DNA of 64,000 nt, from sequence record KT184316.1. One strand, written 5' to 3'. Under the pieces are notes generated by a model that did not search any database, was not told the DNA's origin, and saw only the letters and a program-made list of their open reading frames with translations. Both the position numbers and the translations under genes were made by a program. The stretch is from Enterobacteria phage XTG1. The first letter of the stretch is position 1. The number at the start of each line of letters is the position of its first letter. This document shows, piece after piece, positions 43,314 to 44,099 of the stretch.

Positions 43314-44099
43314 ATGGGTATTGTAAAAATAATCAATGGTGATATCTTTGCCGCATTTGATAAAGGTAAGTTTGACATCATCGGTCACGGTTGCAACTGT
43401 ATGAATTTAATGGGTGCAGGTATCGCTGACAAGATTTCTAAACTTTACCCAAAAGCATATGAGACCGATACAGAAGTTTATCTATATGCAGGTGGTATAG
43501 GACACAAACCCTGTGAAAATTTACTGGGTAATTTCTCTGTAGCACGTTTAAAACAAGGTCGTATAGCTAACCTTTACACTCAGCTTAAGACTGGTAAAGA
43601 TGCCCGATACAGTGCTTTAGAGTCATCTTTGAAACAGCTTAACAGATACTGTGAAGTCAATCAGTTGAAGAAAGTCGGGTTACCTATGATTGGTGCAGGT
43701 ATCGGTGGGCTAGACCCTCAAGCCGTCACAGTTATCATTAATCAGGTGATGAAGAGTGTAGATGTTTATCTATATGTCTATGAAGGAGAGATGTACCACA
43801 AGTTACGCTCAGGTTGGAAGAACTACTGTGAACCAGAATACTTTGCAGGTGTAGTTGTGTTCACGGATAATGCAGTTACCCTCTTCAGACGAAGAAAAGG
43901 TAAGATACATCAAAGTAACCCTCCGGTTGAAAAGATGTCTCTAAGTAACGCTCTAGTTACCCACCTGTCAAAGAGCAATCACAGAATTGCTGTAACATTT
44001 GGTAGTGATGCAGAAGCTTATATCTATGCAAGAACTGATGAGGATATCGAGGCAATCTTCTCTTCACCAGAAGTTACCTTCTTAGACGCAAAGAACTAA
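43314..44099 (+). CDS. Macro-domain (ADP-ribose-binding/processing) protein, tentative
   Basis: N-terminal IINGDIF…IIGHGCNCMNLMGAGIA and later GLPMIGAGIGGLDPQ resemble the two conserved glycine-rich loops of macro domains. Confidence 0.45.
   Translation: MGIVKIINGDIFAAFDKGKFDIIGHGCNCMNLMGAGIADKISKLYPKAYETDTEVYLYAGGIGHKPCENLLGNFSVARLKQGRIANLYTQLKTGKDARYSALESSLKQLNRYCEVNQLKKVGLPMIGAGIGGLDPQAVTVIINQVMKSVDVYLYVYEGEMYHKLRSGWKNYCEPEYFAGVVVFTDNAVTLFRRRKGKIHQSNPPVEKMSLSNALVTHLSKSNHRIAVTFGSDAEAYIYARTDEDIEAIFSSPEVTFLDAKN

Follow-up and report, generated by a model that had tools for sequence, protein, structure and literature searches.

The gene at positions 43314 to 44099 of Enterobacteria phage XTG1 (KT184316.1) encodes a 261-aa two-domain protein, in which a macro domain with a conserved catalytic His and Asn is fused to a separate orphan domain that makes up ~40% of the protein. 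The same genome encodes NARP1, an NAD+ pathway first found in phage Bas63. We infer, with a probability of roughly 0.4, that the macro protein is an Adpp-like enzyme working for NARP1 in trans. The window, i.e., the whole stretch of 64,000 nucleotides that was analysed, belongs to a Felixounavirus near Bas63. The relevant features are as follows.

33105..34001, + strand: Prs-like gene for the NARP1 enzyme Adps, orthologous to Bas63 gene 79 (Pfam Pribosyltran/Pribosyl_synth)
34047..35828, + strand: Nampt-like gene for the NARP1 enzyme Namat, orthologous to Bas63 gene 80 (Pfam NAPRTase/NAMPT_N)
40586..41281: polynucleotide-kinase-like (PNK) gene, 2 kb upstream of the macro gene, syntenic across the subfamily
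41769..41786, + strand: terminator-like hairpin that precedes the block of genes from spanin to macro
43300..43306, + strand: Shine-Dalgarno sequence GGGAGAG, 5' of the macro gene
43314..44099, + strand: CDS of the 261-aa protein with its two domains; the Bas63 ortholog is bas63_0095, annotated as "putative phosphatase"
43314..43784, + strand: macro domain, residues 1-157, Poa1p/TARG1/DarG branch, PHROG 335 (profiles, AlphaFold2 model, Foldseek)
43377..43427, + strand: loop 1, IIGHGCNCMNLMGAGIA, residues 22-38, containing H25, N28 and G34-A-G (alignment)
43569..43583, + strand: NLYTQ motif, residues 86-90, invariant in the clade, with Q90 at the TARG1 K84/DarG K80 position (alignment)
43677..43721, + strand: loop 2, GLPMIGAGIGGLDPQ, residues 122-136, with G131 at the TARG1 D125 position (alignment)
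Residues 158-167: linker helix ahead of the orphan C-terminal domain
43815..44096, + strand: orphan C-terminal domain, residues ~168-261, predicted six beta-strands and a C-terminal helix, pI ~6 (AlphaFold2 model, searches)
44129..44180, + strand: terminator-like hairpin with a 17-pair stem and a T-run, 30 nt past the macro stop codon, end of the transcription unit

Gene structure and macro domain

The reading frame runs from an ATG at 43314 to a TAA at 44097-44099, and the opposite strand of this interval contains many stop codons. The ATG immediately follows the TAA of the preceding ORF, and translational coupling to that ORF is likely. Counterparts in other Felixounaviruses share 96-99.6% protein identity with the macro protein. 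The gene is annotated in GenBank, as "putative phosphatase", as "macro domain" or, in some records, as O-acetyl-ADP-ribose deacetylase. Literature searches found neither a study of the 261-aa protein itself nor a phenotype of Bas63 or Felixounaviruses on aRES or DarTG hosts. The sequence-only reading had missed the fusion of the macro domain to a fast-evolving, lineage-restricted extra domain.

Profile comparison confirmed the assignment of the predicted product to the Pfam Macro family (PF01661) at a level far above chance: residues 25-141 matched profile positions 2-117 of 118 with 32.4 bits (gathering cutoff, 22 bits) and an E value of 1e-7. The PHROG 335 "phosphatase" profile matched residues 1-260 (E 3.1e-113) and, at a length of 422 positions, evidently takes in two-domain members. 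TARG1/OARD1 was matched in the PDB by phmmer (E 1e-5). The AlphaFold2 model of the 261-aa protein (pLDDT 84.7, pTM 0.85) confirmed residues 1-157 as a macro domain with a predicted three-layer alpha/beta fold. When this model was compared to the PDB using Foldseek, TARG1 was matched with an E value of 5.5e-9 and a target-normalised TM score of 0.77-0.81, and the best 50 of the 205 matches at E <= 1e-3 were all macrodomains or macro-fold scaffolds. No second macro gene was found within the XTG1 window.

The sequence-only reading had singled out this ORF for two glycine-rich loops resembling the ADP-ribose-binding loops of macro domains. Both loops are present, and alignment with SARS-CoV-2 Mac1 identified them as the canonical ones: N28 pairs with N40 and G34-A-G-I with G46-G-G-V in the first, and G127-A-G-I-G-G-L-D-P with S128-A-G-I-F-G-A-D-P in the second. 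The pairing was identical in the PDB phmmer result. The same reading had named the lack of a macro fold as grounds for dropping the idea, and the fold is present in the model. Its view of the whole protein as macro-like held for residues ~1-157 but not for residues ~168-261, which form the orphan domain. Finally, it had proposed a comparison with MacroD, Af1521 and DarG; the macro fold and a DarG match were recovered, but the closest structural class of the XTG1 macro domain is TARG1/DarG/Poa1p, not MacroD/Af1521.

By alignment, G34-A-G is the diphosphate-binding loop, N28 is the canonical macro catalytic Asn, and H25 corresponds to H24 of the Adpp protein of phage Gary. H25, N28 and both glycine loops showed no variation across the aligned two-domain homologs. 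Human TARG1/OARD1 (C6orf130) was the best solved-structure match by both sequence and structure, but both of its catalytic residues are replaced in the XTG1 protein: in the phmmer and MAFFT alignments, Q90 lies opposite K84 and G131 opposite D125. The active site of DarG includes K80, which we take to be equivalent to TARG1 K84. The GGLD of loop 2 is clade specific, and single-domain relatives have GG[DN]W. The 261-aa protein is best explained as a catalytically competent macro hydrolase of a Poa1p-like phage family that would act at the 1'' position of ADP-ribose. Some macro domains merely bind ADP-ribose, and the Kolesnikvirus ortholog does not have the His; nevertheless, the invariance noted above and a macro domain dN/dS of 0.01-0.04 make it very unlikely that the protein is a non-catalytic ADP-ribose reader. 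The same holds for an antidote to a phage-encoded ADP-ribosyltransferase (ART), since no ART is annotated in the 75 kb of curated Bas63 sequence covered. No Tpt1/KptA, RNA ligase, 2H phosphoesterase, NADAR or Nudix protein is annotated there either.

Genomic context and relation to Adpp

The spanin-to-macro gene block (41810-44099) has terminator-like hairpins on both sides. The sequence-only reading had placed the gene near an NAD+ module; NARP1 is indeed encoded in the genome, but the macro gene is neither in nor next to its operon: it follows 7.5 kb further downstream, after about 14 genes. The gene order Nampt-rIIA-rIIB-PNK-macro is kept down to 33% protein identity. The two-domain macro protein and an XTG1-type Namat were found together in 257/257 records, all within one phage subfamily and hence not independent evidence.

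With Adpp, a macro-domain phosphatase of ADPR-1''-phosphate, NARP1 is extended to NARP1-AP and beats the aRES defence (Osterman et al., bioRxiv 10.64898/2026.01.28.702374). In that study, Adpp of Vibrio phage Gary (KNV71_gp137) converted ADPR-1''P to ADPR and was needed for NARP1 against aRES, and its H24A variant was inactive. ADPR-1''P arises from NAD+ phosphorolysis by RES-type NADases such as aRES, which NARP1 without Adpp cannot beat (10.64898/2026.01.28.702374). The rescuing phosphatase was present in only about 15% of NARP1 phages, counted at up to two genes from the operon; the aRES homologs in Supplementary Table S2 include E. coli and Salmonella genomes, hosts of Felixounaviruses, and Table S1 is without any Escherichia or Salmonella phage (10.64898/2026.01.28.702374). 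By this operon-proximity count, the XTG1 macro gene falls outside NARP1-AP.

The XTG1 protein and Adpp both belong to a Poa1p-like phage macro family and share the catalytic His, and Adps and Namat are encoded in the XTG1 genome too. Identity was 27% to Gary Adpp (E 1.6e-12) and 30-35% to several operon Adpps. The motifs of Gary Adpp are HQCNC/NVYGQ/IGCGLAGGDW, whereas those of the XTG1 protein are HGCNC/NLYTQ/IGAGIGGLD. The macro proteins of NARP1 operons are diverse in sequence, and some of them, e.g., that of Acinetobacter phage phiAbaA1, carry HGCNC/xxYTQ/IGAG. Moreover, Prs-macro-Nampt operons, such as that of Vibrio phage K412, include the gene of a homologous macro protein. In contrast to the XTG1 protein with its 261 aa and orphan domain, Adpp proteins are single-domain proteins of ~150-160 aa, and their genes lie within two genes of NARP1 rather than ~14 genes off in another transcription unit.

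If the XTG1 protein is an Adpp-like enzyme, it would dephosphorylate ADPR-1''P produced by RES-type NADases (aRES). ADPR-1''P could possibly also come from decay of the NARP1 intermediate ADPR-PP through its cyclic phosphate; ADPR-cyclic-phosphate builds up during Bas63 infection. The plain ADP-ribose product would then be converted to NAD+ by the phage Adps (33105-34001) and Namat (34047-35828). Acting in trans from its own transcription unit, the macro enzyme would constitute a dispersed NARP1-AP for Ounavirinae. The ADP-ribose/NAD+ chemistry that had been suggested from the presence of the Prs/Nampt pair has since been shown for the homolog Adpp, which extends NARP1, and the suggested reversal of ADP-ribosylation would correspond to the role of the homolog T4 Tk.4/AdfM against DarTG2.

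Several observations speak against an Adpp role in trans. Identity to Gary Adpp (27%) is slightly below that to Tk.4 (34%). The C-terminal domain is absent from all Adpps described so far. The Kolesnikvirus ortholog has a Q at the essential His position, yet NARP1 is retained in its genome. Most carriers of the macro family, T4-like phages included, were unmatched by a high-identity Namat search, and T4 is not known to carry NARP1; the family thus has uses independent of that pathway. Some macro domain is found in about 41% of myoviruses.

Comparison with AdfM, DarG, TARG1 and Poa1p

The closest experimentally anchored protein was T4 Tk.4/AdfM, with 34-35% identical residues across 160 aa (E 5e-24 against a small database; E 1e-15 to 1e-16 by tblastn). 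Both proteins have the signature HGCNC/NLYTQ/IGAGIG and a Gln at the DarG Lys position. However, Tk.4 is a single-domain protein of 155 aa from a phage not known to carry NARP1, and it keeps a Trp after glycine loop 2 that is lost in the XTG1 two-domain clade. T4 tk.4 was the single gene that HIDEN-SEQ picked out as needed on DarTG2 hosts, where the T4 knockout was sensitised, and the activity of Tk.4/AdfM (anti-DarT factor Macrodomain) was inferred from genetics only (10.1101/2025.11.20.689424).

By analogy with the activity proposed for Tk.4, the XTG1 protein may be an anti-DarT factor that strips DarT2-placed ADP-ribose from thymidines of phage ssDNA, an activity that may coexist with that of an Adpp. 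We consider this the main rival role, somewhat less probable than that of an Adpp. It is consistent with the need of T4 for tk.4 and the common signature, with TARG1 and DarG as the best structural matches, and with a fast-evolving, genus-swappable C-terminus, which suits contact with a variable host protein. However, the catalytic Lys of DarG and TARG1 is a Gln in the XTG1 protein, and the activity of Tk.4 is itself known from genetics only. AdfM of PhiKZ, a DarG2-like enzyme for which DNA-ADPr hydrolysis has been proven biochemically, retains this Lys as K78. An anti-DarT protein might use its C-terminal domain to reach DNA, the replisome or DarT, like the toxin-binding domain of DarG, but in the XTG1 protein this domain has a pI of ~6 and no match to the DarG C-terminus.

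DarG was the sole match in NCBIfam and PADLOC, covering the macro part only: 47.8 bits over profile positions 4-153 of 338 in NCBIfam, where the equivalog cutoff is 250 bits, and positions 18-146 of 329 in PADLOC. The macro fold superposes on Thermus aquaticus DarG with a TM score of 0.79, and both proteins have a macro plus C-terminal domain layout, but the C-terminal domains are unrelated. With the DarG profile, proven Adpp proteins reached 34.9-48.9 bits and Tk.4 reached 30.3 bits. We thus rejected the DarG match as favouring an anti-DarT role, since Adpp proteins score equally or higher. In a neighbor-joining (NJ) tree, deep nodes had <50% bootstrap, no sister link of the XTG1 clade to Tk.4 was supported, and the operon Adpp of phiAbaA1 fell in the same motif group. 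Sequence identity (27-35%), DarG profile score and tree do not separate an Adpp role from an AdfM role.

Two further roles were weighed. Macro domains are generally promiscuous on 1''/2''-linked ADPR substrates, and a role of phage macro proteins on soluble derivatives has been argued on the basis of comparative genomics. The XTG1 protein might accordingly hydrolyse or bind other soluble ADP-ribose derivatives (sirtuin-type O-acyl-ADP-ribose; 2'/3' cADPR or His-ADPR signals), silencing a signal or feeding NARP1 in the manner of RyDEP, a NARP1-locus enzyme that turns signals into ADPR. The deacetylase label in some GenBank records and the top structural match to TARG1/OARD1 fit such a role, but the label was transferred by similarity only, activity on such substrates is not known for any member of the phage family, and the described phage counters to Thoeris signals are non-macro proteins (sponges, RyDEP). 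We therefore judge it improbable.

Yeast Poa1p, an ADP-ribose 1''-phosphate phosphatase (PDB 6LFQ-6LFU), was matched by Foldseek (TM 0.72) and, partially and weakly, by phmmer in the loop 1 region (residues 17-56 versus Poa1p 18-57, E ~0.01); Poa1p is a single-domain protein of eukaryotic tRNA splicing. The "phosphatase" labels in PHROG and GenBank derive from this relationship. A housekeeping role like that of Poa1p, i.e., clearing Appr-1''p from a Tpt1/KptA-type 2'-phosphotransferase step in tRNA repair together with the syntenic PNK-annotated gene (40586-41281), is very unlikely: the PNK-like ORF had no Pfam match at E <= 0.01, and RNA ligase, Tpt1/KptA and 2H phosphoesterase are missing from the Bas63 annotation.

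The C-terminal domain and significance

The C-terminal domain was found only in Ounavirinae-like phages and is under weaker purifying selection than the macro domain. In the Kolesnikvirus ortholog its place is taken by an unrelated sequence, which we rejected as an equivalent domain. The sole Pfam match was PH at an E value of 0.2, a PDB profile search gave nothing credible, BFVD returned only the domain's own family, from Escherichia phage SUSP2, and PADLOC gave no match. A profile of the domain run against 1.84 billion representatives recovered just macro-fused relatives, fragments and repeat-protein noise. An aRad1-like inhibitor of aRES was also considered and rejected (hhalign probability 0.2%), and no aRad1a homolog was found in the XTG1 window.

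The domain is best read as an accessory, fast-evolving module, most likely one for protein-protein contact. It is a good deal less probable that, as in DarG, it is a swappable target-recognition module that makes the protein a two-pronged anti-defence factor. In that case, the macro part would erase ADPR-1''P or ADPr-DNA, and the C-terminal part would bind, block or dock onto the producing host enzyme (aRES, DarT or another NADase/ART), or dock onto Adps/Namat for channelling. An arms race with the partner would then explain both the faster evolution of the domain and its replacement in Kolesnikvirus.

Bas63-type Felixounaviruses are the founding model of NARP1. If the distal Ounavirinae macro protein acts as an Adpp in trans, 257 more phage records would have a complete NARP1-AP. 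A Namat/Nampt-like match of near-full length was found in 1,447 records, of which the 257 make up roughly a sixth. The operon-proximity criterion would then undercount the trait, and such phages should escape restriction by aRES. If it is instead of the AdfM type, anti-DarT macro enzymes without the DarG lysine would reach a second major coliphage group. Under either role, the orphan domain, which evolves rapidly and whose fusion to the macro domain is conserved, provides a handle for finding the partner of the protein. Felixounaviruses also find wide use against Salmonella and E. coli in biocontrol and therapy, a setting in which the defence and counter-defence content is predictive of host range.

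Sequence, predicted fold and active site of the macro protein

The sequence-only reading had placed a macro-domain-like protein with two glycine-rich motifs at 43314-44099 (+). This reading frame is real: it is open from ATG to TAA over 261 codons, a ribosome-binding site (GGGAGAG) lies 8-14 nt 5' of the ATG, which abuts the stop codon of the small ORF before it, and stop codons close the same frame on the opposite strand. Both motifs are present (residues 22-38 and 122-136), and the macro assignment proved correct, since sequence profiles and predicted fold agree. Pfam PF01661 matched with 32.4 bits, above its gathering threshold of 22, and PHROG 335 matched end to end (E 3e-113). 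The solved relatives are TARG1/OARD1, DarG, coronavirus/alphavirus Mac1 and Poa1p. The AlphaFold2 model of the full-length protein (19 homologs) had a pLDDT of 84.7 and a pTM of 0.85. Foldseek against the PDB returned TARG1 (E 5.5e-9, target-normalised TM 0.77-0.81), DarG (TM 0.79) and Poa1p (TM 0.72), each of the matches listed covering merely ~155-180 alignment columns.

Over the 4 kb around the gene, identity is 98.9% with Felixounavirus LF82P9, 98.7% with phage KhF2 and ~92% with BASEL phage Bas63 (JohannRWettstein), whose ortholog bas63_0095 is labelled "putative phosphatase". Other records use "macro domain", "phosphatase" or "O-acetyl-ADP-ribose deacetylase"; public annotation thus already contains the bare identification as a macro-domain protein.

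Residue mapping by alignment confirms the predicted macro active site. N28 corresponds to the canonical catalytic Asn (Mac1 N40), and G34-A-G-I and G127-A-G-I-G-G-L-D-P to both phosphate-binding loops of Mac1. Invariant in two-domain homologs down to 33% identity were H25, G26, N28, C29, G34-A35-G36, N86-L-Y-T-Q90 and G127-A-G-I…G132-L-D134. The Lys/Asp pair of TARG1 is missing in the alignment, with Q90 at K84 and G131 at D125; we take TARG1 K84 to be equivalent to DarG K80. The active-site residues of DarG are N22 and K80, a pair kept in PhiKZ AdfM (anti-DarT factor Macrodomain) as N23/K78. T4-type Tk.4 (L002:1498-1962) has been likened to DarG but, unlike PhiKZ AdfM, has Gln at the catalytic-Lys position (NLYTQ), so its mechanism may differ from that of DarG. 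In every single-domain relative a Trp follows glycine loop 2 (GG[DN]W); all Ounavirinae forms have lost it (GGLD).

Comparison with Adpp and AdfM

NARP1, a phage pathway that rebuilds NAD+, was discovered in Bas63 genes 79-80 (ADPR and ATP yield ADPR-PP, then with nicotinamide NAD+). The stand-alone RES NADase aRES phosphorolyses NAD+ to nicotinamide and ADPR-1''-phosphate, which the Prs-like enzyme Adps cannot use (Osterman et al. 2026, 10.64898/2026.01.28.702374), and NARP1 therefore fails against it. In ~15% of NARP1 phages, a Poa1p-like macro protein, Adpp, is encoded at most two genes from the operon; it dephosphorylates ADPR-1''P and restores the pathway. Purified Adpp of Vibrio phage Gary is active, and H24A abolishes counter-defence (Osterman et al. 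2026, 10.64898/2026.01.28.702374). Table S1 of this preprint holds no Escherichia or Salmonella phage (10.64898/2026.01.28.702374), so Ounavirinae-type phages fall outside its 15%. Using HIDEN-SEQ, T4 tk.4 was found to be the sole gene needed on hosts with the toxin-antitoxin system DarTG2, and was named AdfM (10.1101/2025.11.20.689424); for the separate DarG2-like "AdfM" of PhiKZ, there is biochemical proof of ADP-ribose removal from DNA. These very recent findings on homologs match the earlier suggestion of ADP-ribose/NAD+ chemistry, possibly with reversal of ADP-ribosylation.

Pairwise identity of the macro domain is 34-35% with Tk.4, 30-35% with operon Adpps from Pseudomonas/Acinetobacter phages and 27-28% with Gary Adpp; between Tk.4 and Gary Adpp it is 35%. 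The two-domain clade and Tk.4 have HGCNC / xxYTQ / IGAG in common with an operon Adpp, that of Acinetobacter phiAbaA1; in Adpps of the Gary and Pakpunavirus types the motifs are HQ[CA]NC / xxYGQ. The two-domain clade received 100% bootstrap in a tree whose deep nodes all lacked resolution. DarG was the sole NCBIfam/PADLOC match (47.8 bits vs a cutoff of 250), and its profile gave 34.9-48.9 bits on proven Adpps and 30.3 bits on Tk.4. Pairwise identity, motifs, tree and DarG profile, four tests, did not separate an Adpp from an AdfM role. Adpps, Tk.4 and the macro protein belong to a single phage family within the TARG1/DarG/Poa1p branch.

We consider Adpp acting in trans the likeliest role, with a probability of roughly 40%. 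AdfM-like reversal of DarT2 DNA ADP-ribosylation, a somewhat doubtful main rival, is favoured by Tk.4 being slightly more similar and weakened by the missing catalytic Lys. It is compatible with the Adpp role, and one enzyme may carry out both reactions because macro domains are promiscuous. Action on other soluble ADPR derivatives is distinctly unlikely. ART, Tpt1/KptA, RNA ligase, NADAR and Nudix are absent from the curated Bas63 annotation; RNA-repair housekeeping seems very improbable, as does a function as ADP-ribose reader or antidote to the phage's own ART.

Gene neighbourhood

Features around the macro gene and in related phages
33105-34001, Prs-like gene (Adps), ortholog of Bas63 gene 79
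34047-35828, Nampt-like gene (Namat), ortholog of Bas63 gene 80
41810-44099, tightly packed block: i-spanin, o-spanin, four small ORFs, macro gene last
41769-41786 and 44129-44170, terminator-like hairpins flanking this block
L003:4169-7122, Vibrio phage K412, Prs - macro - Nampt operon (NARP1-AP arrangement), directly 3' of rIIA/rIIB
L007:11998-12780, Erwinia phage vEam_W_25, Kolesnikvirus syntenic ortholog; macro domain kept, NARP1 retained upstream

The gene had been described as early and near an NAD+ module. The Prs-like/Nampt-like pair is indeed present and constitutes the NARP1 genes, but the macro gene lies 7.5 kb downstream, outside their operon. In between are 2-3 small ORFs, rIIA, rIIB, a lysozyme-like ORF, a PNK-like ORF and one further ORF. 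The macro block, in which start and stop codons abut or overlap, includes the overlapping spanin pair (lysis genes, 41810-42317), and the "early" label is therefore uncertain. The order Nampt-rIIA-rIIB-…-PNK-…-spanins-macro is kept in Mooglevirus and Kolesnikvirus, as well as in metagenomic relatives with just 33-36% identity in the macro protein. The full-length macro protein occurs in 257 phage records and Namat at least 60% identical in 257; this complete co-occurrence is one evolutionary observation, because it concerns a single lineage. The K412 arrangement was found independently by tblastn with the macro protein, and its position shows the rII-NARP1 neighbourhood to be common to unrelated Vibrio phages and Ounavirinae. 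Neither a second macro gene nor a homolog of the aRES inhibitor aRad1 was found in the 64,000-nt window.

The ORF at 40586-41281 is annotated "polynucleotide kinase" (HAD-like) in Bas63 and Michonne; it had no Pfam match at E <= 0.01, and precomputed HAD_PNKP matches of relatives are weak or faint. The ~520-nt gap after the macro terminator, annotated with two small minus-strand ORFs in Bas63, holds three 34-nt direct repeats at 44231, 44270 and 44315 (CTCCAAAGAG…CATTTTCAAAcTGTGCAG) plus another pair of 34 nt at 44173 and 44330 (repeats within 44173-44363), which could be duplicated mini-genes or binding sites. Downstream, the small-gene region (44516-51147) is interspersed with highly conserved intergenic cassettes of ~70-100 nt, which fall into two families; these promoter-plus-stem-loop elements, typical of the region, start only at 44516.

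Cassettes and tRNA genes
Type A, 7 copies, e.g. 45008-45109, 45480-45581, 47498-47599
Type B, 5 copies: 44516-44585, 47128-47197, 47993-48062, 49547-49616, 50708-50777
63474-63803, +, start of tRNA cluster: tRNA-Pro(TGG), tRNA-Glu(TTC), tRNA-Met(CAT)

Type A reads AAAGTACTTTAC - GGGGCTTAA…TTAAGCCCC hairpin - AAAGAGCTTTAC - SD - ATG, and type B sigma-70-like TTGACA…TAAATT promoter - GGGGAGGGAATGACCTTCCCC hairpin - SD - ATG. Both types are similar to the promoter-early-stem-loop (PeSL) cassettes found in T4-type phages.

The C-terminal domain and the proposed pathway

Residues ~168-261 are confidently predicted to fold by themselves; modelled alone, they gave six beta-strands and a C-terminal helix (pLDDT 79, pTM 0.74). 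The pTM of the full-length model suggests that the two domains form a single rigid body. The C-terminal domain had no match in Pfam, PDB sequences or PADLOC, and BFVD returned its own family alone. When 1.84 billion representative proteins were searched by profile, it was fused to the macro domain only, besides fragments and repeat-protein noise. A relationship to aRad1 was rejected, as the comparison showed none. Its pI of ~6 does not suggest generic nucleic-acid binding. Within Felixounavirus, dN/dS was 0.10-0.26 vs 0.01-0.04 for the macro domain, with few substitutions, and against Mooglevirus 0.49 vs 0.19, with small substitution counts; in Felixounavirus the domain is under purifying selection more relaxed than that on the macro domain. 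The Kolesnikvirus ortholog has Gln at the essential His position of Adpp (IGQGCNC), and its ~100-aa C-terminal extension showed no similarity to the Felixounavirus domain (hhalign probability 0.06%). Lineage-specific, faster-evolving, swappable and enzyme-fused, the domain looks as expected of a partner- or target-binding module.

We found no literature description of a family member distant from NARP1 in Ounavirinae, including the NARP1 model phage, of a conserved two-domain form with an orphan, genus-variable C-terminal domain, or of the absence of TARG1/DarG catalytic residues with the Adpp His kept. As Adpp in trans, the macro protein would be a 1''-specific ADP-ribose hydrolase converting ADPR-1''P to ADPR. 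The substrate would come from aRES-type NAD+ phosphorolysis; alternatively, it might arise by ADPR-PP decay via ADPR-cyclic-phosphate, which is seen in Bas63 infections, a route that leaves a cyclic phosphodiesterase step unaccounted for. The ADPR product would be supplied to the phage's own Adps and Namat, and Ounavirinae would thereby have a dispersed NARP1-AP, that is, NARP1 with Adpp.
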